Positions 31,966 through 59,947 of a stretch of 64,000 bases of DNA are shown piece by piece. Within the stretch, counting starts at the first letter, position 1. The number at the start of each line of letters is the position of its first letter. The position numbers and the translations under genes were made by a program. The notes beneath the pieces were generated by a model. That model made no database searches, was not told the DNA's origin, and was given only the letters and a program-made list of their open reading frames with translations. The DNA comes from a virus (lineage: Duplodnaviria > Heunggongvirae > Uroviricota > Caudoviricetes): the IMG/VR virus record IMGVR_UViG_3300014208_000025, positions 180,967-244,966 of that record; one strand, given 5' to 3'.

Positions 31966-32056
31966 TGTCGGATAGTGAGCGAATCGAACGCTTCACCGGT
32001 TTTACCCGGAGCACTTTTCGAGAGTGCCGTAACAAACCAATATTTACCTACTATCC
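31966..32056 (-). tRNA. tRNA-Ser(CGA)
   Basis: GCACT-CTCGAAA-AGTGC arm, long variable arm, G73; ends ACA rather than CCA. Confidence 0.85.
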
Positions 32057-32058
32057 TT

Positions 32059-32226
32059 TTATGGTTTTAACCTACGACGCCCATTGCGTCGTTTACAAAC
32101 ACTACAACGTTCCCAATCACCGACCAGATTTCTATCACAAATACACCAATTGATTCCTTGTTTTGGAGAGTGAGCTTTATCCCGATTGGTCTGAGGATAT
32201 TCCTCATCGTAATACTTGAAATTCAT
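32059..32226 (-). CDS. Small hypothetical protein (55 aa)
   Basis: MNFKYYDEEYPQ...CICDR...CSVC; start moved downstream of the Ser tRNA. Confidence 0.5.
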   Translation of the reverse strand: MNFKYYDEEYPQTNRDKAHSPKQGINWCICDRNLVGDWERCSVCKRRNGRRRLKP

Positions 32227-32232
32227 AAAAAT

Positions 32233-32324
32233 TGGCGGAAGCGGGAGGATTCGAACCTCCGGGCCGGCTTTCGCCGACCTTCTGATTTCCAATCAGATGC
32301 CATAGTCCACTCTGCCACGCTTCC
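32233..32324 (-). tRNA. tRNA-Ser(GGA)
   Basis: TCTGA-TTGGAAA-TCAGA; class II arm; GCCA end. Confidence 0.95.
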
Positions 32325-32326
32325 AA

Positions 32327-32488
32327 TGTGACGGGATTCGAATGTTAGAATCATGTCTAACTCATACCCCTCTTTAGGCTCGGGGATAACCTACCACGGT
32401 CTTCGGGTGAACTTAACACCCTACTTATTGCCCGTGTTTCTGGCGTTAGTATCAAATACGGCGCCGAACAAACAATCCCACCCGTCAC
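32327..32488 (-). ncRNA. Unassigned multi-stem RNA (~160 nt)
   Basis: Terminal stem GTGACGGG/CCCGTCAC enclosing four hairpins; no ORF. Confidence 0.5.
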
Positions 32489-32492
32489 AAAT

Positions 32493-32566
32493 TGGCTGGG
32501 GATGGAGGAATCGAACCTTCACTTTGACTTTCAGAGTGTCCTTTGCTGCCACTACAACAATCCCCA
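32493..32566 (-). tRNA. tRNA-Gln(CUG)
   Basis: U1-A72, loop CTCTGAA, weak anticodon stem. Confidence 0.8.
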
Positions 32567-32650
32567 ATAAATTTGGCCGGTCTATTTTATCCACTATCAC
32601 AGTCGGAAATCGCTGTATAGACACCGTGGATTGACTCGGAATTCCGAAAT

Positions 32651-32724
32651 TGGTGGAGCCACGGAGAATCGCACTCCGATTTCAACGTTGCCGACGTTAT
32701 GTCCTACTATTGAACGATGACCCC
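32651..32724 (-). tRNA. tRNA-Ala(GGC)
   Basis: G3:U70, loop TCGGCAA (C33), variant T-loop TGCGATT. Confidence 0.85.
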
Positions 32725-32983
32725 AAATTTCACAAGATGCGTGATTTACAGTTTTCTCCGTTGTCCTTTTTACAACTCACAACTGTTGAACGTTTTTTCG
32801 TAGGCATCGCTACGACCTACCTCCGGCAGGATTTATCCCTTGTGGGTTTGGTTTCTTTAATAATTTGATTTGCTGTTACCGCACCTTTGATTAGCAACTT
32901 CACTCACCCGGTCCTCGTAAGGCTAGACCCCCGCTTCTCTCATACACATCTACCATGTTTGAGCCGGTACCTCATTACTAAAT

Positions 32984-33086
32984 TGGTTGCTGAAGCACAG
33001 GAGTCGAACCTGCTATCTACACCTTATGAGGGTGTAATGATTCATCAAGGAATTTCTTCCAAGACTTTCCGTTTCACTCGCCAGCG
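32984..33086 (-). tRNA. Atypical CAU tRNA (Met/Ile2) with D-arm insertion
   Basis: TACACC-CTCATAA-GGTGTA; ~20 extra nt in the D region; irregular T-stem/acceptor junction. Confidence 0.6.
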
Positions 33087-33148
33087 AAATTCAAAGAACT
33101 GCCTATAAGTATCTACGATAGACACAAAATGTCAAGTCAAAAATGATT

Positions 33149-33222
33149 TGGTGGAGCCGAAGGGAATTGAACCCTTATCTGTTCAGTGCGAGTGAACTGT
33201 CCTACCGTTGAACGACGACCCC
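33149..33222 (-). tRNA. tRNA-Ala(CGC)
   Basis: GTTCA-CTCGCAC-TGAAC; G3:U70; ACCA. Confidence 0.9.
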
Positions 33223-33816
33223 ATATCCTTTGTATTCTTTTTGTTTTCCACAAATGACTCGTAACAGCATCGATGGTGATATTCCTTTTTCACGACAAAA
33301 TTTTCTCAATCCAACGATTTCTATTGGATTTCCATTTGAGTCATTCACCACGTATTTCTTTTTTACTCCTGAATTGGGCTTGGGAATACCTGTTACGGCT
33401 TTTTTCATTTTCGTAATCCAGTCATCACTCATTTTCTTTCCCCAGTTGGGATGATTCTTTCCACTCAGAGAAGCAGACATTTTGGCAACAGTTTCCGGCG
33501 TGGCTTTACATCCCAATCTACTGGCTCTTGGAGTTCTGCACATGTTATATCCATGTTCGTCTTTGAATGAATGTAGTTTCCGAATCCAATGTTCTTCTTG
33601 GTCCACCAATAACGTCTTAGAACAACGTTCAACAATTTCATAAACAAAACAATTCCCCCCATATTTGTTCCACGCATTTTGAAGGTATGGGTTAAAATGG
33701 TCGCCACGATTAAGAGAAAGTTTATGTTGGCTCCACCGTTTGTTTAACTTTCCAGTAGAACCAAGATATCGTTTTCCATTAACAACATTCCGAATAGCAT
33801 AAACACCTATGTTCAT
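33202..33816 (-). CDS. GIY-YIG homing endonuclease with NUMOD3 motifs (204 aa)
   Basis: GVYAIRNVVNGKRYLGST, RWSQH, GYNM; ETVAKMSASLSGKNHPNWGKK; stop lies inside tRNA-Ala(CGC). Confidence 0.9.
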   Translation of the reverse strand: MNIGVYAIRNVVNGKRYLGSTGKLNKRWSQHKLSLNRGDHFNPYLQNAWNKYGGNCFVYEIVERCSKTLLVDQEEHWIRKLHSFKDEHGYNMCRTPRASRLGCKATPETVAKMSASLSGKNHPNWGKKMSDDWITKMKKAVTGIPKPNSGVKKKYVVNDSNGNPIEIVGLRKFCREKGISPSMLLRVICGKQKEYKGYGVVVQR

Positions 33817-33827
33817 GACTATAAGTA

Positions 33828-34102
33828 TTGAAAGAGTTAGCCAAGATTCTGTTTTAATCTAACATTTATCTCAAAACTTTCGTTTTGGTGACGTGCTAAT
33901 AGTCACTGCTCCAACCATTCCTTAATAATGAATAACTCACATTCTCAGGACTTTAGGATTGCTGCGGATTTGTGGTTTTATCGGACTTGTCTAAACTACC
34001 CAATTTCTGAGTTTAAGCAAGTCCTCCCAAACAACGAGTTAAGCAGTCTTGAACTTCCTCTAAATGAAGGCTTTACTCCATTCAGCGTTAGAATTCTTCC
34101 AA
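33828..34102 (-). ncRNA. rnpB: RNase P RNA, compact, reduced S-domain
   Basis: P1 TTGGAAGA/TCTTTCAA; P2 TCTAACG/TGTTAGA; CR-I GAGGAAGTTCAAGA pairs with CR-V ACAGAATCTTGGCT (P4 with bulged U); CR-IV AGATAAATG; P5 CTGC/GCAG-CAA; P6 TAACTC/GAGTTA; L15 GGT; GAAA-capped P18. Confidence 0.85.
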
Positions 34103-34151
34103 ATTCAAAGAACTATGGCAAAGATACCACAAATCCAATTGGTGTCAACGT

Positions 34152-34376
34152 TTATTTTGGTTCATTTTCACCCATTCTTTGAGCAGCTTTTGCAACTGCT
34201 AAACCCAACGTCAGTGTCACGTAGGAAGAATCAATCGGTTTCAATTCCTTGAAATGAATCGTGTTGTATGTAATGTTGAAACACAAGACCAACATCCAAA
34301 GGAAAAACACCAAACGCATCATGGAGTAACCCTCGGCGTTATCCTCGAAAAATGATTTCAGTTGGGTCAAATCCAT
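34152..34376 (-). CDS. Small two-TM protein, holin-like (74 aa)
   Basis: YSMMRLVFFLWMLV and YVTLTLGLAVAKAAQ hydrophobic segments, charged C-terminus. Confidence 0.45.
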   Translation of the reverse strand: MDLTQLKSFFEDNAEGYSMMRLVFFLWMLVLCFNITYNTIHFKELKPIDSSYVTLTLGLAVAKAAQRMGENEPK

Positions 34377-34379
34377 AAA

Positions 34380-34718
34380 TTACCTCGGCACCGTATAATT
34401 AAATTCCAATGGAGCCGATGGAGCATTCGTCGGATAACTCAACTCAGATGACGGTTTCGAAGTGCCTACTCCATTCTTGGCCACAAGGCGGAATTTGTAT
34501 GTGCCAGCGGTCAACCCCTTTATTACTCCGACATTGGTTGTTCCGGATATGGTAACAACCGCAACAAAATTGGTGTTGGGAGATTTGCTTTGTTCAATGA
34601 CATAACTTGTCACGAACTCATTGGTCGGATTGTGTTTCCACGTAAACCAAAAATCGCCGGCAAACACACAGGATGATAAAATCATCAAGGTTATACTAAT
34701 GAATAGGAATTTCTTCAT
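34380..34718 (-). CDS. Secreted FN3-domain protein (112 aa)
   Basis: Signal peptide MKKFLFISITLMIL; LTAGTYKFRLVAKNGVGTSKPS. Confidence 0.75.
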   Translation of the reverse strand: MKKFLFISITLMILSSCVFAGDFWFTWKHNPTNEFVTSYVIEQSKSPNTNFVAVVTISGTTNVGVIKGLTAGTYKFRLVAKNGVGTSKPSSELSYPTNAPSAPLEFNYTVPR

Positions 34719-34731
34719 GTCAATAAATAGG

Positions 34732-35088
34732 TTACTTCACGTTGAAAAGTTTGAAATCTGTTGGAGCCGTCGGAATAGAATTTGTTAACGGCGGTGTGGA
34801 GTTGGTGGAAGTGTAATTGACTTCGTTGGATGGGAGACTTTCAACTCCATTAATTGTATAAGCCGTGGCCACGAAGAAATAAGTGACTCCGTTGGTCGGT
34901 AGTTGAATGGTAACGTTGGTTTGATTTCCAACGTCAACTCTAATTTTATAACTTCCACTATTGGTGCCATAAAGAATAGCATACCCAGTAACATTTGAAT
35001 CAGGACTCGGATCCCAAGCTAATCCGACCGCAAACAAAGACATTACAGTTAGTAACATCAATATAACAAATACAAAGAATTTTTTCAC
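34732..35088 (-). CDS. Secreted FN3-domain protein (118 aa)
   Basis: GTG start MKKFFVFVILM; LAWDPSPDSNVTGYAILYGTNSGSY...TYFFVATAY...ESLPSNEV. Confidence 0.75.
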   Translation of the reverse strand: MKKFFVFVILMLLTVMSLFAVGLAWDPSPDSNVTGYAILYGTNSGSYKIRVDVGNQTNVTIQLPTNGVTYFFVATAYTINGVESLPSNEVNYTSTNSTPPLTNSIPTAPTDFKLFNVK

Positions 35089-35094
35089 AAAAAA

Positions 35095-35178
35095 TGGTGT
35101 TACTGGAGAGATTCGAACTCTCATGGAATTACCCGATAGGTCCTTAGCCTATTGTGTCTGCCGTTCCACCACAGTAAC
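35095..35178 (-). tRNA. tRNA-Leu(AAG)
   Basis: ATAGG-CTAAGGA-CCTAT; Leu-type D-loop GGAACGGCAGAC, class II arm, A73. Confidence 0.85.
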
Positions 35179-35185
35179 AAAATGT

Positions 35186-35464
35186 TTACACCAAAACCAA
35201 TTCAAGCAATCCTCCACGGTCCAAAATTTCATATTCCATTGCTCTGGTCTTTTGTTCATCGGTCGGGTCATGACTGAAATTACACCGTCCCAAAATCAAA
35301 GTCAAGAGATTATATTTTTGATTCCATGTTTTGGCACCCACAGAATCATACAAATCGGTCAAATATTGATCGGCTTCTTTGTTGAATCTATACTCTTGAC
35401 GTTCACGAAACAGACTCGCCGTTTTAAGTCCAGATTCATCTATTGTAACGGTTGTTGTTTTCAT
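35186..35464 (-). CDS. Hypothetical protein (92 aa)
   Basis: ORF track; fits between two tRNAs. Confidence 0.55.
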   Translation of the reverse strand: MKTTTVTIDESGLKTASLFRERQEYRFNKEADQYLTDLYDSVGAKTWNQKYNLLTLILGRCNFSHDPTDEQKTRAMEYEILDRGGLLELVLV

Positions 35465-35468
35465 AAAA

Positions 35469-35542
35469 TGGTAGGAGATATTGGAATCGAACCAATGCCT
35501 GAATCGTGTAAAGATTCCCGTCTGCCATTAGCATAATCTCCC
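35469..35542 (-). tRNA. tRNA-Val(UAC)
   Basis: GAATC-TTTACAC-GATTC; ACCA. Confidence 0.9.
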
Positions 35543-35551
35543 ATTCAAAAA

Positions 35552-35690
35552 TAACGACGGTTGGGTTACGGGAAAGGGTCAAATCTTTTATCTGTTCTTG
35601 TACTTTGAACAAACCCACTCACTCTCCATCATTCTAAACGGGAGCTTATCCCCGTCAGTGTATCAACATCGTGAGCTTGCTGACCGTCAT
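35552..35690 (-). ncRNA. Unassigned structured RNA (~138 nt) abutting an HNH stop codon
   Basis: Terminal stem ATGACGGT/ACCGTCGT; hairpins GTCAG/CTGAC, ACGGG/CCCGT, TTTGTTC/GAACAGA. Confidence 0.45.
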
Positions 35691-37027: not shown

Positions 37028-37094
37028 TGGTGATTGAGTGTTCTGATTAGAACTCTCGGGTCTATGCTGCAGACTAAGACTCCCGACTCAATCA
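37028..37094 (-). ncRNA. CCA-ended tRNA-like RNA lacking a D-arm (67 nt)
   Basis: 8-bp acceptor GATTGAGT/ACTCAATC + ACCA, adjacent GTTCT-AATC-AGAAC hairpin, GTCT-GCAGCAT-AGAC hairpin. Confidence 0.55.
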
Positions 37095-37189: not shown

Positions 37190-37273
37190 TGGTGTCAGTA
37201 GAGGGAGTCGAACCTTCACGTCTTACGACGGCAGTTTTTGAAACTGCTGCGGCTACCGTTACGCCATACTGAC
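37190..37273 (-). tRNA. tRNA-Leu(CAA), class II
   Basis: GCAGT-TTCAAAA-ACTGC; variable hairpin CGTC-GTAA-GACG. Confidence 0.95.
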
Positions 37274-38704: not shown

Positions 38705-39292
38705 TTAGGAACAATGTTCATCTCTACAATTAAGAGAAAATACAAGCATGATTGCTTTAATTCCGTTATCATTGATTTCTCTTGTTCCGATACCCGCAAA
38801 ATTCTCGGTCAACTTGGGAATATAGTCAATCACTTCAAACTTGTCAAGTTCGTAATTGAACTTCTTCCAACAGTTGTTTACTTGATCGAACACGAGCACA
38901 GGTTTTTTGTTGTCAATCGCCATTTGAATGGCCCATCCAGTTCCACCTTCAACGGTTGTCGGAGTCATGGTTTTCGCGATGGCAAAAACTGCTTCAGCAT
39001 TCTTAACTTGAAACCAGTTACGAGACAAAAGATTCTGCACATACGGATATTGACAATTAGGATTTCGTTTCAATCCCTTGGCAGCAATTTTGACGTGATC
39101 GAAACCTTCTTTCAGTTCGTCAACCGTCAATATTTTTTGATTCTTTCTTTTTTGAACGTGATTGTGAAACGAGTAAGCAATGGTTTTGACACCGTATTTT
39201 TCGCCTACAATTTCCCACGTCATATCAGATCCCGGACAACCTCCGCTATGGCATGTATAATTCATAATATGTTTCCTATCGTTAAGTGCCAC
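38705..39292 (-). CDS. SLOG/YpsA-like nucleotide-binding protein (195 aa)
   Basis: CHSGGCPGSD...GGTGWAIQMA..KKPV..FDQ...FAGIGTR motifs. Confidence 0.6.
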   Translation of the reverse strand: MALNDRKHIMNYTCHSGGCPGSDMTWEIVGEKYGVKTIAYSFHNHVQKRKNQKILTVDELKEGFDHVKIAAKGLKRNPNCQYPYVQNLLSRNWFQVKNAEAVFAIAKTMTPTTVEGGTGWAIQMAIDNKKPVLVFDQVNNCWKKFNYELDKFEVIDYIPKLTENFAGIGTREINDNGIKAIMLVFSLNCRDEHCS

Positions 39293-39639
39293 GGAATCGG
39301 AATCTTGGGATTCAATCCCAACTCTTGTCGAATCTCTTCAATCCTCGGACACTCGACCGTCAACCAAAAATACCGGTCATCGCTAAGAATCTCTCTATGG
39401 TATGAAAATTCCACAATGTTGCCTTCAAACTTACCCCACAGATGTTCGTGTGAAGCATCTGGCTTCTCATACTTTCCAGCAATGACCGTAATGTGTGCTC
39501 CATCCCGCGGCGGATTCAATTTCAAGGAAGGAGATTGAATGTTAACTAGTTTGCGATAGTATTCACAAATCTCGTCATCCACTTTCATAATCAACCACCA
39601 ACTACGGTGATAGAAAAGTTGTCCGTTTCCGTTGAACAT
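39262..39639 (-). CDS. 2H phosphoesterase (LigT/Acb1-like, 125 aa)
   Basis: Two HxT motifs: GAHITVI and PWHLTIG; start moved to MFNGNG. Confidence 0.7.
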   Translation of the reverse strand: MFNGNGQLFYHRSWWLIMKVDDEICEYYRKLVNIQSPSLKLNPPRDGAHITVIAGKYEKPDASHEHLWGKFEGNIVEFSYHREILSDDRYFWLTVECPRIEEIRQELGLNPKIPIPWHLTIGNIL

Positions 39640-40028
39640 AAATTGTTTTTCGTAAGAGGCAAATAGGAAGTCAACTTCCATCCCGGTTTCCAATAAACCG
39701 TTCCATCTGGCTTTCCATAAATACCATCATAAATTTTATCGCCTTGAATTACCACCCAATGACCTTTTTGTTTTTTTGGATAAGTCAACTTGCCCAACCC
39801 AAGTTCAGGTCGTGGCTTTCTACATAGTCGGTCGGTACACTGAAATCCCACTTTACGAAGTGCTTTAGCAATCCGTTTGGTTGTTGTGCAACCTTTTTTG
39901 CCAACGAGTTTGATTGCGTCATCAAGTGGAATGTTTGCCAAAACCGTCACCGCAATCTGACCACATAGATTACTTCCTTCCGGTTGTTTCATCCATTTCA
40001 ATTCCATGTTGTTATTATACCTCGCCAC
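39591..40028 (-). CDS. Peptidase C39-like papain-fold protein (~140 aa)
   Basis: Q...NLCGQIAV and GHWVV...IYD triad motifs. Confidence 0.65.
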   Translation of the reverse strand: MARYNNNMELKWMKQPEGSNLCGQIAVTVLANIPLDDAIKLVGKKGCTTTKRIAKALRKVGFQCTDRLCRKPRPELGLGKLTYPKKQKGHWVVIQGDKIYDGIYGKPDGTVYWKPGWKLTSYLPLTKNNLCSTETDNFSITVVGG

Positions 40029-40428: not shown

Positions 40429-40510
40429 TGGTGCAGGTGGGGGGATTCGAACCCACATTTTCATCCAATTACGATTCATACTGCTTAGAAGGCAGCGTCG
40501 GTACACCTGC
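40429..40510 (-). tRNA. Rearranged tRNA-Arg(UCU): no D-arm at the normal position, D-like hairpin after the anticodon arm
   Basis: GCAGGTG-taccgac-GCTGC cttctaa GCAGT-atgaa-TCGT aattgg ATGA-aaat-T arm-CACCTGC-ACCA. Confidence 0.7.
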
Positions 40511-40572
40511 ATTTTTGAAATTGCTTTGGAGTCGGATATAGTTTTTGAGAATTCTAACTATACTTATTGAAT

Positions 40573-41322
40573 ATGAACATGTTAATTTCAAAATCTGAAT
40601 TAGATTCCAAATCAAGTCGAGAACTTATCCCATTGGAATGTTTAGAATGTCACAATACTCATCATCGAACTAAAAATACCATACTTAGAATTCTGAATGG
40701 TTCATTAAAAGGAACACAAAAAGGGTGTTTTTGTTCTCATAAATGCGCCGAATTATTCAAATACAAAGCATCTGTTTTTTCCACTACATGTGGAGAGTGT
40801 AATAAAGATATTACCAAATACAAAACAGACGAAAAAATCAAAAATTTTTGTTCATATTCGTGTCGAGCAAAATATTGGAACAAAAACAGAGAATGGTCAA
40901 ACAAACATAACAGGTCAAAATTAGAAGTATGGATTGAAGAACAATTAACCGAATTGTATCCAACACTTGAAATTCATTACAACAAAACAAATGCCATTGA
41001 TATTGAGTTGGACATTTACATTCCATCCTTGAAGTTGGCCTTTGAACTTAACGGAATTTTTCACTATAAACCAATTTACGGAAAAGAAAGGCTTAAAGTA
41101 AAACAAACCAATGATGCCCGAAAAATTCAGTCGTGTTTAGAAAAAAATGTTGATTTATGTATTATTGATACAACATCTCAAATTTCTTTTAGAGAAAAAA
41201 CAAGTCAAAAATTTTTCGACATTATATCAACAACCATCAATCAAAATCGGTGCCGGATGCGGGCTTTGGCACCCGTCAATTCATGCGACGGTCAGGAAAT
41301 CGAAGAGCAAAAACTCCCCTAA
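40573..41322 (+). CDS. Zn-finger plus Vsr/DUF559-like homing endonuclease (249 aa)
   Basis: CLEC, FCSHKC, CGEC, FCSYSC; ELDIYIPSLKLAFELNGIFHY. Confidence 0.75.
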   Translation: MNMLISKSELDSKSSRELIPLECLECHNTHHRTKNTILRILNGSLKGTQKGCFCSHKCAELFKYKASVFSTTCGECNKDITKYKTDEKIKNFCSYSCRAKYWNKNREWSNKHNRSKLEVWIEEQLTELYPTLEIHYNKTNAIDIELDIYIPSLKLAFELNGIFHYKPIYGKERLKVKQTNDARKIQSCLEKNVDLCIIDTTSQISFREKTSQKFFDIISTTINQNRCRMRALAPVNSCDGQEIEEQKLP

Positions 41323-42031: not shown

Positions 42032-42120
42032 TGGTCAGAGTGGTGGGGGTCGAACCCACAGAGTCATGATGACACCCGGTTCCAGGCCGGGGTGGCTGCC
42101 AATTACCTTCTTACACTCTG
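42032..42120 (-). tRNA. tRNA-Pro(UGG) with long variable arm and C33
   Basis: CCCGG-CCTGGAA-CCGGG; variable hairpin GTCA-TCA-TGAC; C1-G72, A73. Confidence 0.75.
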
Positions 42121-42849: not shown

Positions 42850-42926
42850 TGGGGTGGCAGACGGGTAATGCTCCCGTTCCAATTCCTTCACAGGGAATGA
42901 TGCTAAACTTTCACACTCCTACCACC
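42850..42926 (-). tRNA. tRNA-His(GUG)
   Basis: TTCC-CTGTGAA-GGAA; G-1:C73; variant T-loop AGCATTA. Confidence 0.9.
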
Positions 42927-42936: not shown

Positions 42937-43035
42937 CTTCCGGAAACTTGAGGGATTCGAACCGGTTCCGTTGCAACGGAATTCTCTCGCCCGATTTATA
43001 GGACTTTGCCATGCCTTGTACTTCAGCAGTTTCCG
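42937..43035 (-). pseudogene. Degenerate class II tRNA-like sequence
   Basis: CGGAAACT/AGTTTCCG stem, GGTTCGAATCC, long variable hairpin; anticodon arm malformed, no CCA. Confidence 0.45.
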
Positions 43036-43039
43036 AAAT

Positions 43040-43118: not shown

Positions 43119-43278
43119 TGGTCGAGCCTGATGGTTTCCAACCATCGTTGTCATCGGATTGAACTAACATGTATATCAATCCGTCACATCACACACTTCT
43201 TACCATCCCTTACGGGGTAGGAGTTTCACGTCTAGCGACGTTGTGAAACCATGCTGCCTTGGACTAGGCTAAGACTCG
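43119..43278 (-). ncRNA. 160-nt CCA-ended RNA with tRNA top half and five internal hairpins
   Basis: Acceptor CGAGTCT/AGGCTCG+ACCA stacked on GATGG-TTGGAAA-CCATC. Confidence 0.6.
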
Positions 43279-43726: not shown

Positions 43727-43802
43727 TGGTCCCAACTCCCGGTTACGCTCCGGGCTTTACAGATTTTCAGTCTGTCACTTTCACTAGATTAGTTTAGTTG
43801 GG
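43727..43802 (-). tRNA. tRNA-Phe(GAA)
   Basis: ACAGA-CTGAAAA-TCTGT; variant T-loop AGCGTAA. Confidence 0.85.
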
Positions 43803-43807: not shown

Positions 43808-43881
43808 TGGCTCCCTCTGATGGTTACGCTCCACCGCTCTACGCTTCAAAGGCGTCGTTGCTACTATTACAACAAGAGGGA
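43808..43881 (-). tRNA. tRNA-Gln(UUG)
   Basis: ACGC-CTTTGAA-GCGT; T-loop AGCGTAA; U1-A72, G73. Confidence 0.85.
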
Positions 43882-44156: not shown

Positions 44157-44230
44157 TGGAGCAGGTGAACGGAATCGAACCGTCACTTTAACATTGGCAA
44201 TGTCATGGGCTACCACTACACTACACCTGC
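44157..44230 (-). tRNA. tRNA-Gly(GCC)
   Basis: GACA-TTGCCAA-TGTT; U73. Confidence 0.95.
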
Positions 44231-44695: not shown

Positions 44696-44774
44696 TGGTG
44701 CGCCGAGTGGGTAATGCTCCCACACGAATCGTTCGGGTAAGAACCGAGTGCCCGTCTATTGTGGCTTTCGACGC
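44696..44774 (-). tRNA. tRNA-Lys(CUU)
   Basis: TCGG-TTCTTAC-CCGA; T-loop AGCATTA. Confidence 0.8.
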
Positions 44775-45052: not shown

Positions 45053-45131
45053 TGGACCCCACTGACAGGATTTAAGCCTGTGTTTCTGCTCTATAACGGA
45101 ACAGCGTCCTAACCATTGAACGACCGTGGGA
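45053..45131 (-). pseudogene. Degenerate tRNA (anticodon ambiguous, possibly UUA)
   Basis: D-arm GTTCAATGGTTAGGAC, T-loop CTTAAAT, 6-bp stem closing CGTTATA; irregular acceptor. Confidence 0.45.
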
Positions 45132-45787: not shown

Positions 45788-46291
45788 CTACATGGGCTTT
45801 TTTAAATTTCTTTGTTTCAATTTTAATCCTTCTAAATATAATTCTTCTTGTTTAAATAACTCATCATCAAGTGGATTATAACCTTTCTTTTTCCAGCGGC
45901 AACGTCTAACATTTCTCAATCTCGATTTTGCTTGTTGAAATGTAATTGGAATTTCTTCTTTTATTTTATTGTGTTCTCCGACGTGGCATTTTCTACAGAG
46001 AGTTTTCAAATCTGAAACGGTTACGTCATACAAATTCTTATACGAAATATGATGAACATCTAAATGTTTATCCGTTCCACATACTTCACACATTAGATTC
46101 ATTAAAAGCTTTTTGGACCTTAATTCTTTCCAATGGTCAGATTTCAAATACACATTCCAGTAATAATCTGAATCTGTTAAATAAAAACTTGTTTTTTGTT
46201 TGCCTACTGAAATTCTGGTTTTTACAAATTTGATTTGTTTAGGTTTATAATATTTGATTGCTTTGGAAATTATATTAGATGATGAATACAT
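45788..46291 (-). CDS. HNH endonuclease (167 aa)
   Basis: CEVCG...LDVHHISY...DLKTLCRKCH. Confidence 0.85.
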   Translation of the reverse strand: MYSSSNIISKAIKYYKPKQIKFVKTRISVGKQKTSFYLTDSDYYWNVYLKSDHWKELRSKKLLMNLMCEVCGTDKHLDVHHISYKNLYDVTVSDLKTLCRKCHVGEHNKIKEEIPITFQQAKSRLRNVRRCRWKKKGYNPLDDELFKQEELYLEGLKLKQRNLKKPM

Positions 46292-46502
46292 GGTTAAAGT
46301 ATATCACACCGTCTAATCAAAGTCAATACATTTTATATTAACAACGAACGCCATGTTATCTCTGAGCTAATATCAGAGTCCGGGTTCTGGTTTTACCCAT
46401 AACACCCCATGACCGATAAGTGATTTTTTATACCATAGCACCAGTTTTACTGGAGGCTCACTGTAAGAGTTCTAAGCCTATACTAACAAAATTCACACTA
46501 AT

Positions 46503-46544
46503 AAAAAACAAAAACCGCCAACTTCTTTCGGAGTCGGCGGTTTT
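46503..46544 (-). terminator. Intrinsic terminator (candidate attenuator terminator)
   Basis: AAAACCGCCGACT-CCGAAAGA-AGTTGGCGGTTTT followed by a U-rich tract. Confidence 0.75.
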
Positions 46545-46568
46545 CAAAGTCTTCTATTCGTCTGAGCG

Positions 46569-46703
46569 TTATCCGCCGCTCCTTCCTGCTTTATCAAATT
46601 GATTATATGACTTATGCCACATCGGCGTTTCGACAGAACAGGCGTCCTCACCCTCAATCGAGGGGATACTTGGCAACCGTTCTAATATCGTTCTTGTTTT
46701 CAT
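46569..46703 (-). CDS. Putative leader peptide (44 aa)
   Basis: ATG 14 nt after the -10 hexamer; MKTRTILERL...GRSGG-stop; ends 25 nt before the terminator. Confidence 0.4.
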   Translation of the reverse strand: MKTRTILERLPSIPSIEGEDACSVETPMWHKSYNQFDKAGRSGG

Positions 46704-46716
46704 CGTTACACCAATA

Positions 46717-46744
46717 ACTATATCACGAGTTTGAAAAGTGTCAA
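46717..46744 (-). promoter_or_regulatory. Sigma70-type promoter
   Basis: TTGACA-N16-TATAGT. Confidence 0.7.
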
Positions 46745-46934
46745 GCTTTTTAAGAATCTTTTTCTGACCCGAAGATTCTTTCTAAAAGTCGTTCTTCGGG
46801 ACTCTTTGAGAGATACTTTTCATACTTCGCTTCGATAGCCGTTTGGTCATCTACTGTATTAACATCATAACCCAAAGGTGGTTGATTGTCAATATCTTTT
46901 TTCATCTTTGTGTAAATAGTTGATTTTCAGTTAT

Positions 46935-48659: not shown

Positions 48660-48735
48660 TGGAGCCCAAGGACGGTACTGCCCCGTCGCCTCAACTTTAC
48701 CAAAGTCGTGTACTAACTTTTATACTACATGGGCC
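48660..48735 (-). tRNA. tRNA-Thr(GGU)
   Basis: CGACT-TTGGTAA-AGTTG; variant T-loop GGCAGTA. Confidence 0.85.
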
Positions 48736-49152
48736 TTGAAAATAAGAAACATCGTGACTTTCCGTTTATCCTAGTAGTCTTGCGTTCGGGACAGGCACAA
48801 GGTTGTTCATCACAATCCTAGTCACACGATTGGCCACTTTTGCCGTTTTATGTTTCTCTAAATGACATGGGTGGCGGTGATTCCAAACCAACCTATTCCT
48901 GTTCGGGTGAGGTTTCCCTCTTGAAACAAGTAATCAAAGCGTTATTCGTTTTCACGAACCCTTCGAGCTTCGGTGCGTACCCTTAGCACGCCTTTGTCAA
49001 AAATTCTTGTACGGATTCAATCTTAGTCTTGTTACCTTGACCATATTCAATCAAGGATTGTATGGTTTCTTCCGAAGCATCAAACTTCGTTACTCGTTCA
49101 CCGAGTATTTCATTCCACAACTGACTGAATCGTTCGTATTTCATATTCAAAT

Positions 49153-49234
49153 TGGTAGGCATGGCAGGACTTGAACCTGCATTTTCATTCCAATTATACG
49201 ACTACCGGTTCGAAGCCGGTGCTAATACATGCCC
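49153..49234 (-). tRNA. Rearranged tRNA-Arg(UCG), same architecture as 40429..40510
   Basis: GGGCATG-tattagc-ACCGG cttcgaa CCGGT-ag-TCGT ataattgga ATGA-aaat-GCAGG ttcaagt CCTGC-CATGCCT-ACCA. Confidence 0.7.
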
Positions 49235-50041: not shown

Positions 50042-50113
50042 TGGTAGCAAAGATGAGTGCCGACCTCATTTGTTCGTGCTTATGAGACACAAACCCTTGC
50101 CGAAGGCTCTGCT
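50042..50113 (-). tRNA. Atypical CAU tRNA with 4-nt D-loop and non-consensus T-loop
   Basis: AGCAGAG/CTTTGCT+ACCA; CCTT-CGGC-AAGG; TGTGT-CTCATAA-GCACG; ATGAG-GTCGGCA-CTCAT. Confidence 0.6.
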
Positions 50114-50221
50114 ATTCATCAATAAGTATATCCCAAATAATGAAGATGTCAAGCATGTTTCAACAAAATCTTTATATGTATGTGATGTAGTCTAAATGTT
50201 ATAATAGATAAAACTAATAAT

Positions 50222-51710: not shown

Positions 51711-51980
51711 TCAAGCAGTAAATTCAGGATGCTTTTTCTGGATTAAGAGAATCTTATCTTGTCGTTTAAGACATTTAATTTGGTATTCACGTTGAGCGGA
51801 TTTGGCTCGTGTGTCGAATTCTTCAAAGTAAACCAATTTAGCAGGCAACCGTTTCGAGACATACTTTGACCCCTTACCTTCGTTGTGAACCTTTACACGG
51901 TCTTCGACATTCAATGTCCATCCACAGTAAAAACTGCCATCTGAGCATTGCACAATGTATGTATATGATTTTTCCATCAA
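51711..51980 (-). CDS. Small GIY-YIG nuclease (UPF0213/YhbQ-like)
   Basis: YTYIVQCSDGSFYCGWT..RVKVHNEGKGSKY...AQREYQIK. Confidence 0.85.
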   Translation of the reverse strand: MMEKSYTYIVQCSDGSFYCGWTLNVEDRVKVHNEGKGSKYVSKRLPAKLVYFEEFDTRAKSAQREYQIKCLKRQDKILLIQKKHPEFTA

Positions 51981-52380: not shown

Positions 52381-52677
52381 TCAATGATACTTGTTTTTGT
52401 CTCGGAACCTGCCGGGTTGTGATTTGAATAACACCGTCGTCGGTTGTTTCAGTCTCCACTTGAGGAATTTCTGAAACTTCTCGGTTTGAAGGATTGACTC
52501 GACCGTATTGTAAACGTCACGCAGTTCATTGTGTGTCCAAGTCTTGTGAATGAATGACTCGCACGTTTCACAGGTTGGCACAATTTCCGTTCCACCTTTG
52601 GATTTGGGCGTCACATGATGACCCCTTGTAAGAGTGGTCAATCCACAGAACACACATTTATTTACTTCCGTTGCCAT
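52381..52677 (-). CDS. Small HNH protein (98 aa)
   Basis: CVFCG...TRGHHVTPKSKGG...CETCESFIH. Confidence 0.75.
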   Translation of the reverse strand: MATEVNKCVFCGLTTLTRGHHVTPKSKGGTEIVPTCETCESFIHKTWTHNELRDVYNTVESILQTEKFQKFLKWRLKQPTTVLFKSQPGRFRDKNKYH

Positions 52678-55729: not shown

Positions 55730-55741
55730 CTTCTTATACCA

Positions 55742-56158: not shown

Positions 56159-56412
56159 GATTGGTCTTTACAGAGAATGAAAGTGTGTTGCACGGTCACT
56201 ACTTTGAACGGGTAGGTTGGCGGAAACGCATGGTCAAACTCCACCATCCAATTATCAAGGATATGTTCGGATGCTTTGCCCACAATCTTGCCCGTTTCAA
56301 TTCCCGAAGGAAAACCGAAACATGACATGTCAACCTGCACGAATTCGCCGTCTGAGAATTTGGGTTTGTTTTCTAGGGTATATCGTTTCATAGACCACCA
56401 GAATATCACCAA
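56155..56412 (-). CDS. Hypothetical protein (85 aa)
   Basis: ORF track; KFSDGEFV small beta-barrel-like. Confidence 0.45.
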   Translation of the reverse strand: MVIFWWSMKRYTLENKPKFSDGEFVQVDMSCFGFPSGIETGKIVGKASEHILDNWMVEFDHAFPPTYPFKVVTVQHTFILCKDQS

Positions 56413-56436
56413 AGAGGGAAAAAGTCAATCAAGAAG

Positions 56437-56511
56437 TGGTGGAGCCACGGGGAGTCGAACCCCGATTTTCAGATTGCAAATCTGACGTATTACCGTTATA
56501 CAGATGACCCC
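56437..56511 (-). tRNA. tRNA-Ala(UGC)
   Basis: TCAGA-TTTGCAA-TCTGA; G3:U70. Confidence 0.95.
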
Positions 56512-56516
56512 AAAAG

Positions 56517-56594
56517 TGGTAGCGCTGACAGGATTCGAACCTGCACTGAACTCGCCCTAAACGAGTTGCCATCTTCCAGTTGGGCTACAGCGCC
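56517..56594 (-). tRNA. tRNA-Leu(UAG) with short variable loop
   Basis: ACTCG-TTTAGGG-CGAGT; 5-nt variable loop. Confidence 0.8.
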
Positions 56595-56606
56595 ATTACA
56601 ATCATA

Positions 56607-56634
56607 ACTATACACAAAGACATGAAAATGTCAA
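56607..56634 (-). promoter_or_regulatory. Sigma70-type promoter
   Basis: TTGACA-N16-TATAGT. Confidence 0.7.
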
Positions 56635-57119
56635 CCTTTATTTTTGGCTCCCCAAGTTTCTGTTTGTTGATGACAATTAGGACAAAGAAATCTTAAATTG
56701 TCAAGTCGGTTATCGGTGTGATTTCCGTTTTTATGGTCAACATGAAATCTTATAGGTCTATCCAACCATTCGGTTAGTTTACATGTCGAACATTCTGACA
56801 TCCATCCTAATTCAATCAACCGACCAAAGAGTTTACTTGACCCATATCCAGAATTTTGACAAAATACCTGTTCGTGGGGGGTTCTTACTTTCAATGATTG
56901 GATTCTTAAAATTTGATTGGAATGTTTTGTTTTTCCTTTGTTCCAAATACAGCCAGTAAAATGAGATGTGTCAATCCCATATTCCTTGATTCTCATGGTT
57001 ATCAGCCGATGAACTCCGCCCGTGACCTTCAACCCCAAATTATTTAACAAATTAGTATAGTTTGTTGATTGTTTAACAAATGGAGTTAAAAACTCTTTGG
57101 TATATTTTCGTTTTCTCAT
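56631..57119 (-). CDS. HNH homing endonuclease (162 aa)
   Basis: HVDHKNGNHTDNRLDNLRFLCPNCHQQT. Confidence 0.9.
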   Translation of the reverse strand: MRKRKYTKEFLTPFVKQSTNYTNLLNNLGLKVTGGVHRLITMRIKEYGIDTSHFTGCIWNKGKTKHSNQILRIQSLKVRTPHEQVFCQNSGYGSSKLFGRLIELGWMSECSTCKLTEWLDRPIRFHVDHKNGNHTDNRLDNLRFLCPNCHQQTETWGAKNKG

Positions 57120-57165
57120 GCAGATACATATGAGAGAATGTGGAAAACGCATCAGAAAAGTAAAT

Positions 57166-58115
57166 TGGAGGGAATTCTACATTGAGAAGGTTCACCAAAG
57201 AAGTCAAGGATTTCACGGAAGTTCCCCGAAGGTCTATTCCTAACAGTTTTGAGAGTTGCTTCGGTTGAGACTACACCGTTGCGTATCGGCCCTCAGAGAT
57301 TATCGTAGCCTTGCGAGCTACCTTCCTCTTCATCCACATTGACCCGCCACGGGGACGGTATCATGTAGCCGATAAGTCTGCCTTTGAATGGTGGCATGTC
57401 CATTAAAACGATAACATATTCCGCGTTTATTCAAACGTCTGCCTTGCGAGCAGTAAGTACCGCGAAGTACTCCGTTCACTTCCACACGAACAACTTTCAC
57501 CTTGCGAGTTACGGTTGACTGAGTTACCTTACGGCCTCAGCATTAAGACTTTTTCAGTCATCGCTAGCACCGACTTTGCTTTTTAATGATAGTGGCTTTG
57601 ACACCACAACACATAGTTCCAATAACTATTGCTCTACTTTGAGCTATATCGAACCTAACCTGCTGGTGCGGTGCTTGCTGTTTCATAAACCTTGCGGAAT
57701 ACAAAATCCAGCACCAGCACTAATCTTTCCTTGCGGTACTCAATCCATCCTTCAAGATTCCGTCCTCAGTGTAAGCCTTGGCCGGTTTCTATCAGATTGT
57801 CACGAAGCTTTTGACTGCTAATCTCAAACCTCATTACTTAGCTTAAATCTCAACTCTCACTGTTGCGCTCGGCAGATGGTAGTGCTCGTCGGCATCGTTA
57901 GTAGTATGTTGCCGGAGTTACCCACAACATACATTTTCCATCCCAGCTTTAAGTGTAACACCCACCTTACGGCGATGTTTACAGATTTTGCTCGTTGTAT
58001 AGGCGTCCAAACCTTTCGGCTTGGTGGGCACCCGTTAGGGAGTGTCCCTTTGGCCCCATTACTGGGGTTTATCTTTATCCACCCTTGCGGGTGAAACGGA
58101 GGCCATACCCCCCGT
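57166..58115 (-). ncRNA. Giant structured ncRNA (~950 nt), GOLLD-like
   Basis: No credible ORF; dense hairpins with recurring GCAA, GAAA, GTAA and TTCG tetraloops; ends CCTCCA; inside a phage tRNA array. Family call from size and context only. Confidence 0.6.
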
Positions 58116-58277
58116 AAATTCAACTAACAAAGAACAATCTACAAATAGAATAGCAATCGGTCTGGCCCCACGGGTAGGACGACTACTACACATGACAAAC
58201 ATCCTATCCTACCGTGTGCCTTTGCTTGGATATCCGTCTCTCAAACTTTTGGAATTGCGTTCCGTTACTGTGAAGAC

Positions 58278-58306
58278 ATTATTACACATCTTCAACTATT
58301 TGTCAA
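58278..58306 (-). promoter_or_regulatory. Sigma70-type promoter upstream of the giant ncRNA
   Basis: TTGACA-N17-AATAAT (or N16-TAATAA). Confidence 0.6.
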
Positions 58307-58368
58307 CCACTTTTTAACGCTTCGGGCGTTTTATTTACAAGTCGTTGACTACCAACACTATCAAAAAT

Positions 58369-58444
58369 TGGTCGGAATGCCGGGACTCGAACCCGGAAAT
58401 CTCGTGTACCCGAAACACGCGGAATACCATTATCCTACATTCCG
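58369..58444 (-). tRNA. tRNA-Pro(CGG)
   Basis: CGTGT-TTCGGGT-ACACG; C1-G72. Confidence 0.95.
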
Positions 58445-58445
58445 A

Positions 58446-58519
58446 TGGTAGGCAATCTGAGAATTGAACTCAGGACTGAATCGTGTCGGAATTCTGTGTT
58501 TCCACTATACCAATTGCCT
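58446..58519 (-). tRNA. tRNA-Val(GAC) with C33
   Basis: GAATT-CCGACAC-GATTC. Confidence 0.8.
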
Positions 58520-58568
58520 AATCGTAGATACATAGTATCACATTTTGAAAACCTGTCAAGTTTTTTCT

Positions 58569-58949
58569 TCAAAGAAGTTTACAGAACTGGGTAATGTGTT
58601 GAATTTGTTCACGCGTAGCGGGGCCAATTCCCAAGGCCGTCACCGTAGGTTGACCGTTAAAGAAGTTGGCACAGCCTGAATCCACCACGACATACGTTGA
58701 CAATCCGGCTGCACGAGCTTCGTTTTCGATGCGATACAATTGAGCGATGTCAGGCACTTGAAGACATATTTTTGTGCCGGGAGATTTGGGGAAATCTTGG
58801 TGATAAGATTGAAGAGCAATCTGGTCTTTACAGTTCACGAAGGCACCCAAAAAAGCGTGGCCAGCCTGTGAAGCGATTTTACCTTTATCCATGCCCAAGT
58901 CGGTTCTGACCAAGGCGTAAAGGCGGTATGTGTTATCCTATTGTTTCAT
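58569..58949 (-). CDS. pth2: Peptidyl-tRNA hydrolase type 2 with in-frame amber at codon 4
   Basis: SD AAAGGAAA, ATG AAA CAA TAG GAT AAC ACA TAC CGC CTT TAC GCC TTG GTC AGA; VRTDLGMDKGKIASQAGHA...KICL...VVDSG...TALGIGP. Confidence 0.85.
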
Positions 58950-58983
58950 ATGTTTCCTTTTTGTTTTGTTGTTGACCGTAAAT

Positions 58984-59079
58984 TGGTGGTTGGTGAATCA
59001 AGCAAGTTCATGACCTTGTGCTCTCGACTCGGTTCGTGATTGATACTCGTCTAGCCTTTCTCTTTCACTACTCCAACCA
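58984..59079 (-). ncRNA. CCA-ended hairpin RNA (96 nt)
   Basis: GGTTGG/CCAACC+ACCA terminal stem with nested stems. Confidence 0.35.
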
Positions 59080-59084
59080 TAAAT

Positions 59085-59235
59085 TGGTGTCAGTAGATGG
59101 ATTCGAACCACCATGTCAAATTTCATGTTTACATCCCACAATGGTAAACCATTGTTTTGACTTTCCACCAGCATAACGTTCGTCTGGCGTTTATCATTAC
59201 TCTCGTCTCCGTCTATCTCATTCCGGCATACTGAC
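59085..59235 (-). ncRNA. Expanded tRNA-Leu-like RNA (151 nt) with multibranch insert replacing the anticodon arm
   Basis: GTCAGTA/TACTGAC+ACCA (same acceptor as Leu-CAA 37190), T-arm GGTGG-TTCGAAT-CCATC; internal GCCAG/CTGGT, GTCAAA/TTTGAC, ACAATGG/CCATTGT. Confidence 0.65.
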
Positions 59236-59240
59236 GTAAT

Positions 59241-59426
59241 TGGTGCCTCTGGCAGGACTCGAACCTGCGACCTACCGTTTTTTAAGGATGGGTGCTCTGC
59301 CGTTTTACCGACTGACGAATAGAATGAGCATACCCTTTCCTCTCCACACTCACTTTCCTGCAGGCTATGAATGTCTTGAGAATACTCTGTCTCACTCTTC
59401 CTCGTCACCAACTGAGCTACCGAGGC
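59241..59426 (-). tRNA. tRNA (UAA loop, class I body) with ~100-nt structured D-loop insertion
   Basis: GCTC-AGTTGG-[TGACGA...TCGTCA]-GTCGGTAAAACGGCA-GAGC; loop CTTAAAA on an imperfect stem; intact T-arm; ACCA. Confidence 0.6.
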
Positions 59427-59431
59427 GAAAT

Positions 59432-59486
59432 TGGTGGTCGCATCTGGACTTGAACCAAAGGAAACAACTGAATTGTTATTGCGACC
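59432..59486 (-). ncRNA. 55-nt mini-tRNA copy 1
   Basis: GGTCGCA-AT-AACAA ttcag TTGTT-TCC-TTTGG ttcaagt CCAGA-TGCGACC-ACCA. Confidence 0.75.
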
Positions 59487-59488
59487 GT

Positions 59489-59543
59489 TGGTGGTTGGCG
59501 CAGGACTTGAACCTGCGGAACATGCTAAACGTGTATGCCAACC
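59489..59543 (-). ncRNA. 55-nt mini-tRNA copy 2
   Basis: GGTTGGC-AT-ACACG tttag CATGT-TCC-GCAGG ttcaagt CCTGC-GCCAACC-ACCA. Confidence 0.75.
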
Positions 59544-59572
59544 AAATTGTGGAAATACTAACTTGAAGAAAA

Positions 59573-59647
59573 TGGCGCCCCATGCGGGATTCGAACCCGC
59601 ACAAAATTCTTTTAGAGAGAACTGCACTGGCCGTTGTGCTAATGAGG
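59573..59647 (-). tRNA. Candidate amber suppressor tRNA (CUA)
   Basis: Loop CT-CTA-AA at canonical positions 32-38; stem pairs well only when shifted by one nt (8-nt loop); intact D/T arms, G73, CCA. Confidence 0.55.
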
Positions 59648-59730
59648 CATTGGAAGAAAGAATGATTGCGTCAGTGATTTTGTCACCGTTGCCTGAAACC
59701 TATGTAAAGTTGTTCTTCATTACGCCAATA

Positions 59731-59758
59731 ACTATATCAGACCATTTGAAAATGTCAA
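59731..59758 (-). promoter_or_regulatory. Sigma70-type promoter heading the atypical-tRNA/pth2 operon
   Basis: TTGACA-N16-TATAGT. Confidence 0.7.
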
Positions 59759-59947
59759 GAACTATCGTAAGAAAAAACTTACAACAAAATGAACAACAAA
59801 GTCCCAATTACGGGTCCGATGCAAGATAACAAATACATTTTTTTCTTCTGTTCATATGTTTTATTTTTCGTAAATGGAAACATAAAAATAGGTGTTGCGA
59901 ACAATAGTATAGCTAGAATTTTTATCATATGTCCTTATAAATATAGT

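Follow-up and report, generated by a model that had tools for sequence, protein, structure and literature searches.

The window analysed here is a stretch of 64,000 nucleotides (nt), bases 180967-244966 of a 279,228-bp IMG/VR virus record whose completeness is estimated at ~79%. On its minus strand lies an island in which tRNA genes for all 20 amino acids are mixed with CCA-ended RNAs that break the cloverleaf, with genes for Pth2, for a stand-alone C-terminal domain of tyrosyl-tRNA synthetase (TyrRS) and for a 2H phosphoesterase, and with an RNA resembling that of ribonuclease P (RNase P) without most of its specificity domain (S-domain). Coordinates are collected in Table 1. Groundwater metagenomes contain DNA near-identical to the window, and megablast with 11 kb of island sequence as the query found nothing among GenBank phages; the best explanation of the host genome of the island is an uncultivated T4-like groundwater jumbo phage of roughly 350 kb. 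The phage uses the standard genetic code. Long frames under translation table 11 cover >90% across most of the genome, TAA and TGA are its main stops, and an alternative code was ruled out because TAG is merely the rarest stop (16/236) and the frames are long under table 11.

ARAGORN at its default setting reports 37 tRNA genes and at -ps90 reports 48, in both cases all on the minus strand and inside 31969-59648; spurious calls outside the island begin only at -ps80. Intron mode gave only implausible composite calls. The Rfam tRNA model adds genes at 40432-40510, 45057-45130 and 48663-48734, which brings the array to ~51. With the His, Met, Phe and Trp genes, whose scores are low, the set covers all 20 amino acids. 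The terminal NCCA is encoded in 43 of the 44 tRNA-type genes checked, mostly with AUUU behind it, and U stands at position -1 in 35 of the 44.

The RNase P-like RNA lies ~19 nt downstream of a sigma70-like promoter, and TTGACA/TATAAT-like boxes stand at the equivalent place in several relatives. The minus-strand element holds GAGGAAGUUCAAGAC and ACAGAAUCUUGGCUAAC, which can pair as P4 with 3 bp, a bulged U and 5 bp, and a fit by eye adds P1, P2, P3, P5, a GAAA-capped hairpin and GAGAUAAAUG. When viral contigs were searched with a 15-mer of conserved region (CR) I, the only true homologue was the syntenic L051, whose helices almost all differ from those of the window RNA through compensatory changes; the other matches were mostly unrelated coding repeats. 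The anchors common to the window RNA and L051 (GGTTGGAGCAG, 20-50 nt, GAGATAAATG) form a family pattern that matches 31 viral contigs. In 185,579 prokaryote species genomes the same pattern gave 9 matches, about the number estimated for chance and all without the flanking motifs, and at this exact-anchor stringency the family is found on viral contigs only. Two members of the family, used as BLAST queries, had no match among GenBank phages. A search with the bacterial CR-I/CR-V consensus, allowing <=3 mismatches, returned chance-level matches and missed the element.

The folding of the family is carried by covariation. Pairing was compared between cognate and non-cognate combinations of strands in 22 non-identical members, the pseudoknot counts being scripted. 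P4, with strands AGAGGA(AGU-U-C....) and (....GGCU)A, occurs in 11 variants and forms 7.91 of its 8 pairs in cognate combinations against 6.12 in non-cognate ones. The corresponding values are 7.0 and 5.0 pairs for P2 (16 variants), 3.91 and 2.77 of 4 pairs for P5 (7 variants), and a mean of 8.3 and 5.5 pairs for the P1 run. The P6 pseudoknot, formed by the strand 3' of P5 with the P16/17 loop, exists in 7 variants, and all 5 pairs form in every cognate combination (100%) but in only 11% of the non-cognate ones. RNAalifold, given 16 members, independently predicts P2, P3, P5, P15, P16, an extra hairpin and P18; double compensatory changes affect 24 of its 34 pairs, with P2 and P3 among them, and P18 covaries.

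P1, P2, P3 and P5 follow one another in the canonical type A order, and P2 and P4 cross as they do there. The sequence motifs were compared with the consensus of RF00010 as aligned to E. coli rnpB. CR-I reads AGAGGAAGUUC in the phage RNA and GAGGAAAGUCC in the consensus, and CR-V reads ACAGAA....GGCUA against ACAGAACCCGGCUUA; between them, GCAGCAAUCCUAAA stands against GgaGCAAggccAAAUA, AGGUUGGAGCAG against GGGUaggccGCU, and GAGAUAAAUG against uAGAugAAUG. CR-I, J5/15-P15, the GGU of L15, CR-IV and CR-V are all recognisable and ordered as in RF00010. The window RNA has the type A L15 GGU, the CAA of J5/15, a CR-IV matching the type A motif AGAUGAAUG and a GAAA loop on P18. Across the aligned members GGTTGGAGCAG, YAATCC and GAGATAAATG are invariant.

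What is mostly missing is the S-domain, with P7-P14 and the T-loop modules of CR-II and CR-III. Only 40-174 nt separate the strands of P5 (median 77, and 77 in the window), the equivalent segment of E. coli being ~160 nt by our count from the rnpB consensus alignment, and this region conserves only the remnants UGGGAG and ACCAC(A). In this family the RNA lies within a few kb of tRNA genes, as a rule inside an array. In all ten loci of relatives scanned with Rfam, tRNA genes are close to it and often immediately adjoining, and the 15 records counted, the window's own included, hold 6-48 tRNA matches each. In one of these arrays, that of L125, there is also a full tmRNA (5523-5903; 123.6 bits).

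Several observations weigh against an RNase P RNA at this place. RF00010, RF00011, RF02357 and the whole Rfam library gave no match at the RNA at E<=1 to 10, whether the window, the genome or the 401-nt region was searched, so that the RNA lies below the Rfam gathering threshold; the sole RNase P match in the genome (RF00011, 7.7 bits, E=1.6) lies away from it. The homologues at the ten loci likewise gave no Rfam RNase P match at E<=1. The segment from J3/4 to P4, GGAAGUUC, either has one A fewer than the bacterial GGAAAGUC or is displaced relative to it, and there is an additional hairpin between P15 and P18. RnpA (PF00825) was not found in the 279-kb record, which is ~79% complete. The metatranscriptome run X4 holds only contigs of a ~90%-identical relative, possibly DNA-derived; one spans 33219-33988, from the GIY-YIG gene into the RNase P-like RNA, and such contigs cannot reveal transcription, ends or processing. 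Lastly, the only viral RNase P-like RNA found in the literature, that of the orthopoxvirus camelpox, was inactive in vitro (PMC3001073); its structural resemblance is weak, whereas covariation fully supports the phage family, whose members are located in tRNA arrays.

Judged by covariation and motifs, the RNA is nonetheless a true, divergent homologue of the catalytic domain of RNase P RNA. We conclude from its sequence that it is a type A-like variant rather than an ordinary member, as it departs from type A in two respects, the S-domain and the Rfam score. It shares with E. coli M1 RNA and its relatives in RF00010 the order and topology of P1-P6, P15/16 and P18 as well as CR-I, CR-IV and CR-V; it differs in an S-domain often reduced to a short P7-like helix and one hairpin, in the extra hairpin and in the altered junction before P4. 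RNase P RNAs without most of the S-domain are known to work: the type T RNA of Pyrobaculum and the engineered C-domain 'mini-M1' both cleave pre-tRNA. They are of comparable size (~200-280 nt) and likewise mostly devoid of the S-domain, but type T (RF02357, which gave no match here) is archaeal and mini-M1 is engineered, whereas the phage family is bacterial type A-like, phage-borne and known here from sequence. Full-text literature searches returned no report of RNase P RNA in any phage. Of the small RNAs that do adjoin phage tRNAs, theta ribozymes, which resemble that of hepatitis delta virus, have been tied to tRNA maturation and suppressor tRNAs (PMC10879173); they are self-cleaving 3'-processing motifs, whereas the RNase P-like RNA would act in trans.

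The odd RNAs of the island were located by a scan for a 7-bp acceptor stem with NCCA, with or without a T-arm requirement, followed by folding, and from ARAGORN drawings; at least 12 CCA-ended RNAs break the cloverleaf. Five CCA-ended genes stand consecutively, directly behind tRNA(CUA), in the minus-strand reading of 58900-59960. In the smallest RNAs, here called minis, a 7-bp acceptor stem and AU precede a 5-bp hairpin whose loop is UUYAG; 3-4 nt then lead to a T-arm and ACCA. What the odd RNAs have in common is the 7-bp acceptor stem, usually a stacked T-arm, and a discriminator followed by CCA; the T-arm is non-canonical in the 95-nt and 66-nt RNAs. No cloverleaf with a 7-nt anticodon loop and a canonical G18G19/T54-Psi55-C56 elbow is found in the minis, the insertion-bearing RNAs or the 66-nt RNA, all of which are without the D-arm or the anticodon arm. 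Neither Rfam nor ARAGORN reports the minis or the 186-, 151-, 95- and 66-nt RNAs, and ARAGORN detects the 160-nt RNA only in intron mode and the one at 50042-50118 only at -ps80. The drawings further give long variable arms to the Asn (91 nt), Lys (86 nt) and Met (84 nt) tRNAs and to the Pro(UGG)-like tRNA, and T-loops of AGCGUAA or AGCAUUA to His, Phe, Gln(UUG) and Lys(CUU).

Two of the odd RNAs share an acceptor stem exactly with a normal tRNA of the island, the 151-nt RNA with Leu(CAA) at 37190-37273 (GTCAGTA/TACTGAC) and the Arg(UCU)-type tRNA with Gly(GCC) at 44157-44230 (GCAGGTG/CACCTGC). The identity of these stems hints at an origin by duplication and perhaps at a shared synthetase identity.

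The relative G001, of 250 kb, has a block matching that around tRNA(CUA): a promoter and tRNA(CUA) come first, then CCA-ended RNAs, three of which are minis of 53-55 nt, and after them pth2. Across the five minis of the two phages, which align readily, double compensatory changes are seen in 13 of 18 pairs, and G1-C72, G2-C71, U3-A70, the linker, the loop and A73 (G in one copy) are conserved; the loop is UUYAG in four copies and UUUAU in the fifth. Among the relatives checked, only the window phage and G001 have minis. Elsewhere in the array, the Pro-like tRNA and its orthologue in G001 share 80% identity, and compensatory changes are among their differences; Thr(GGU) keeps its GGCAGUA loop in G001, and the changes in its stems are compensatory; and the RNA whose CCA is not encoded covaries with G001 in its terminal stem and inserted hairpin. 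The bodies of the insertion-bearing RNAs cannot be aligned between the window and G001. A reading of the letters of the window made before any database search (the original prediction) had counted about 50 tRNA genes for all 20 amino acids and more than 10 CCA-ended RNAs that depart from the cloverleaf in repeatable ways. The counts hold, and the repeatability is borne out by orthologues or paralogues with compensatory changes for the minis, the Pro-like tRNA, Thr(GGU) and the CCA-less RNA.

Small RNAs of this general kind have been described before. The T4 species 1 and 2 (rnaC/rnaD) and the M3 RNA of phi80 are small non-tRNA RNAs from within or beside phage tRNA clusters, with tRNA-like ends, that are cut by RNase P, and the odd RNAs can be likened to them by description. 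The armless mitochondrial tRNAs of nematodes and mites (PMC12221289 and PMC2797822) likewise have 50-60 nt, no D-arm and a retained acceptor stem and T-arm; they are proven to decode, and EF-Tu and CCA enzymes are adapted to them, whereas the minis have a 5-nt loop and an encoded CCA. A literature search gave no paper joining armless tRNAs with phages.

A second departure lies in the elbow. The T-loop survey took in 280 unique genes of CCA-ended, tRNA-like type, drawn from the window, from G001 and from the loci that surround RNase P-like genes; 203 are of the TTC class, 18 of an AGC type and nine of a GGC type. The GG of the D-loop is retained in 196 of the 203 TTC tRNAs and in 4 of the 18 AGC tRNAs, whose D-loop is typically AAUAGUA, and over many phages AGC T-loops co-vary with A18 of the D-loop. 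The pattern suggests that the elbow was rewired in a coordinated way (G18 to A with Psi55 to G, and T54-A58 to A54-U58), not that it decayed. Both the class with AGCRTWA T-loops and AAUAGUA D-loops and a GGCAG.A class recur in loci L122-L151, L171 and L172, and default ARAGORN mostly misses the rewired-elbow classes.

It had been proposed further that an RNase P independent of the elbow suits these odd substrates, and this part of the original prediction stands only halfway. In its favour, the odd RNAs keep the minimal substrate and rewired elbows recur. Two findings count against a specific link. Most tRNAs in the arrays with the RNase P-like family are canonical, and the loss of the S-domain need not relate to odd RNAs; and the G001 orthologues of the window's four tRNAs with AGC T-loops have canonical TTCGAWT loops (UGCAAGU in His), which makes the AGC loops of the window derived. 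On the comparison of family members, the loss of the S-domain is a trait of the whole mini RNase P family, not an adaptation to the odd RNAs of the window phage, because members with even shorter S-domains sit among mostly canonical, high-scoring tRNAs. The narrower prediction, of an RNase P RNA without most of the S-domain, is upheld by the covariation, the motifs and the 77-nt S-region, the Rfam models being negative.

Pth2, a stand-alone S4 domain of TyrRS and a 2H phosphoesterase had also been recognised by eye in the island, and all three are matched by domain profiles. Pth2 scores 82 bits with NF003314, under the equivalog cut-off of 126. The C-terminal domain of the S4 protein aligns only to residues 334-404 of tyrS, and the catalytic Rossmann domain is absent. 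The pth2 gene begins (58938-58949, minus strand) with ATG AAA CAA TAG, after which comes the conserved first strand of the Pth2 fold, and full-length Pth2 therefore needs amber read-through. The first ten codons likewise include one or two in-frame TAGs in pth2 of G001, in pth2 of G018 (two TAGs) and in the Pth2-like gene that G015 encodes; in all four phages a tRNA(CUA) gene is close by. Apart from that of the window, the early TAGs are in L154, L158 and L159. This arrangement suggests that the synthesis of Pth2 is gated by the phage suppressor tRNA. A search for related loci with Pth2 alone gave no relative.

Taken together, the island is likely, in our judgement, to combine a near-complete decoding set of ~50 tRNAs, conserved tRNA-like RNAs and an S-domain-depleted, type A-like RNase P RNA that would work as follows. 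The conserved tRNA-like RNAs keep only the acceptor stem, the T-arm (degenerate in two) and an encoded NCCA. The RNase P-like RNA would be transcribed from its own sigma70-type promoter and would fold into an RNase P catalytic core with the bulged U of P4 and the P6 pseudoknot; the GGU of L15 would pair with the encoded CCA, and the A of J5/15 would face U(-1). Probably together with host RnpA, it would cut the 5' leaders of the densely packed phage pre-tRNAs. Because the S-domain is missing from the enzyme, nothing in it would read the D/T elbow, and rewired-elbow, D-armless and insertion-bearing RNAs would be accepted as well. The accessories for tRNA recycling and repair would be Pth2, made only on amber read-through with the suppressor gene lying ahead of pth2, together with the S4 protein and the 2H phosphoesterase. 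The catalysis, the protein partner and the substrates of the RNA are points that we infer from sequence, whereas elbow-independent processing, decoy and counter-defence functions are plausible. A bolder form, which we put forward as tentative and somewhat improbable, is a partly orthogonal tRNA system in which an S-domain-less RNase P would have co-evolved with rewired-elbow tRNAs, marked by A18 with G55, A54 with U58 or GGCAG T-loops, with D-armless or insertion-bearing CCA RNAs and with a Pth2 gated by the amber suppressor of the phage itself, so that the phage pool could be matured, used and recycled independently of elbow-reading host factors and be invisible to elbow-reading defences.

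Other readings of the same parts have to be weighed. In line with the counter-defence role raised in the original prediction, the odd RNAs may be decoys or sponges for anticodon nucleases or for toxins that act on the acceptor or CCA (CapRel, MenT or HepT-type), with the canonical tRNAs replacing cleaved host tRNAs. It is established that phage tRNAs can counter PARIS or PtuAB, the odd RNAs retain the acceptor stem and NCCA while their decoding part is lost or replaced, and 2H-SAK and Pth2 are encoded in the same island. The anticodon-like loops, on the other hand, are absent or altered, which would make poor decoys for anticodon nucleases, and the restriction of the minis to two phages among those checked also speaks against a decoy role; we consider this reading rather unlikely, if the least so of those set against processing by a phage RNase P.

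The RNase P-like RNA might instead be a non-working mimic that binds host RnpA or competes with host RNase P RNA, and would redirect or throttle host processing. In bacterial holoenzymes P3, J18/2 and J2/4 contact RnpA, and these regions are retained in the phage RNA; that the record has yielded no RnpA, that the Rfam models fail and that the camelpox RNA is inactive would also fit. A protein sponge, however, would not need the invariant GGU of L15, a precisely covarying P4 with its bulged U, the P6 pseudoknot or ACAGAA, and the tRNA genes near the RNA in all relatives checked, often immediately adjoining, also argue against a mimic, which we hold to be improbable.

Still less probable, by a little, is that the minis are functional D-armless tRNAs, comparable to those of nematode mitochondria, reading stop codons (U33-UUA/UCA-G37), which with tRNA(CUA) would form a read-through or termination module tied to the amber-gated pth2. 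The UUYAG loops, the place of the genes between tRNA(CUA) and pth2 in two phages and the early TAG in pth2 of four phages invite it, and the conserved acceptor pairs and A73 might serve as identity elements. The loop, however, has no more than 5 nt and is closed by G-C or C-G in four of the five copies (RNAalifold even pairs U15-G19), which makes a 7-nt anticodon loop unlikely; and with TAA and TGA as main stops under the standard code, general suppression would be harmful. Equally doubtful is that the odd RNAs are functionless, decaying duplicates or tRNA pseudogenes with junk insertions such as homing-endonuclease scars, as the five homing-endonuclease genes of the island, the two shared acceptor stems and the unalignable insertion-bearing bodies could suggest, for compensatory changes keep the stems of the minis, the Pro-like tRNA, Thr(GGU) and the CCA-less RNA, the Arg paralogues keep their odd layout, NCCA and AU-rich spacers are retained, and AGC T-loops co-vary with A18 across many phages.

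Other features of the island stand apart from these questions. The island also encodes an ArdC-N protein and an NAD synthase. One of the GIY-YIG genes follows immediately downstream of the RNase P-like RNA; in L051 it is absent from that place. A structured RNA of 168 nt at 32325-32492 (minus strand) has a minimum free energy of -55 kcal/mol and an 8-bp closing stem, and it ends in UUCGAAUCCCGUCAC with no CCA; G001 has a stretch that shares ~78% identity with its central part. Three gaps of 418-738 nt on the minus strand (40511-41248, 46292-46934 and 48735-49152) are without a convincing open reading frame (ORF) or recognised RNA. A GOLLD RNA, which by its Rfam score is a member of that family, sits inside the tRNA array and is absent from the original prediction. 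Weinberg and colleagues are said to have located GOLLD RNAs in phages beside tRNAs in 2009. GOLLD and the RNase P-like family have phage tRNA arrays in common, but GOLLD is not a member of the latter. The model spans only 458 nt, and the flanks at 57153-57261 and 57720-57856 have no sizeable minus-strand ORF; the RNA may be longer than the Rfam match.

Table 1. Features of the tRNA island, in positions of the window
Feature	Position	Strand	Description
tRNA super-array	31969-59648	-	~51 tRNA genes, 20 amino acids and tRNA(CUA)
RNase P-like RNA, ~275 nt	33828-34102	-	P1-P5, P6 pseudoknot, P15/16, extra hairpin, GAAA-capped P18, CR-I/IV/V
sigma70-like promoter	34121-34148	-	TTGACA, 16-nt spacer, TG-TATCTT (extended -10)
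tRNA(CUA)	59573-59648	-	canonical amber suppressor, 62.5 bits; first gene of the suppressor/odd RNA/pth2 block
55-nt mini tRNA, D-arm absent	59489-59543	-	7-bp acceptor, AU linker, UUUAG-loop hairpin, T-arm, ACCA
second 55-nt mini tRNA, D-arm absent	59432-59486	-	UUCAG loop
186-nt CCA-ended tRNA-like RNA	59241-59426	-	~110-nt insertion in D-loop
151-nt CCA-ended RNA	59085-59235	-	tRNA-Leu(CAA) acceptor stem, canonical T-arm; ~115-nt body replaces D, anticodon and variable regions
95-nt CCA-ended RNA	58984-59078	-	6/7 acceptor stem, non-canonical T-like arm
160-nt CCA-ended RNA	43119-43278	-	acceptor, D-arm and T-arm (UUGGAAA loop) around several hairpins
66-nt CCA-ended RNA	37028-37093	-	GATTGAG/CTCAATC acceptor stem, two hairpins
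odd CCA-ended RNA	50042-50113	-	acceptor/NCCA scan and folding
odd CCA-ended RNA	45053-45130	-	Rfam tRNA match at 45057-45130
Arg(UCU)-type tRNA	40429-40510	-	5'-side D-arm absent; 23-nt extra arm in the variable position, with D-loop-like AAUUGGA
Arg(UCG)-type tRNA	49153-49234	-	paralogue of 40429-40510, identical unusual layout including the 23-nt AAUUGGA arm
Pro(UGG)-like tRNA, 89 nt	42032-42120	-	long variable arm, aberrant D region
tRNA-Thr(GGU)	48660-48734	-	GGCAGUA T-loop
tRNA-like RNA, CCA not encoded	42940-43036	-	hairpin inserted in T-stem
tRNA-His	42850-42925	-	AGCRTWA T-loop (ARAGORN drawing)
tRNA-Phe	43727-43802	-	AGCRTWA T-loop (ARAGORN drawing)
tRNA-Gln(UUG)	43808-43881	-	AGCRTWA T-loop (ARAGORN drawing)
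tRNA-Lys(CUU)	44696-44774	-	AGCRTWA T-loop (ARAGORN drawing)
pth2	58569-58949	-	PF01981, 83.7 bits, cut-off 23
TyrRS C-terminal S4 protein, 138 aa	55742-56158	-	PF22421, 35.2 bits (cut-off 27); S4 PF01479, 31.2 bits
2H-SAK phosphoesterase (PF22547)	39262-39693	-	36.6 bits against 27; HITV and HLTI motifs
GIY-YIG homing endonuclease genes	33202-33816, 51711-51980	-	profile matches
HNH homing endonuclease genes	45788-46291, 52381-52677, 56631-57152	-	profile matches
GOLLD RNA (RF02032)	57262-57719	-	161.5 bits against gathering score 150, full model 1-416

What the window contributes is the co-occurrence of an RNase P-like RNA with many non-canonical tRNA-like RNAs, a rewired-elbow class of tRNAs and an amber-gated pth2. 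RNase P is generally seen as an enzyme common to all cells; if the present reading is true, large phages carry a maturation enzyme besides their tRNAs, and natural RNase P RNAs of ~200-400 nt with a truncated S-domain would be a minimal ribozyme for studies of elbow-free substrate recognition. As the minis are missed by default ARAGORN and the Rfam tRNA model, and the rewired-elbow tRNAs by default ARAGORN, inventories of phage tRNAs may be systematically incomplete. The amber-gated pth2 beside tRNA(CUA) in four phages suggests a regulatory circuit that joins suppressor function to the recycling of peptidyl-tRNA.

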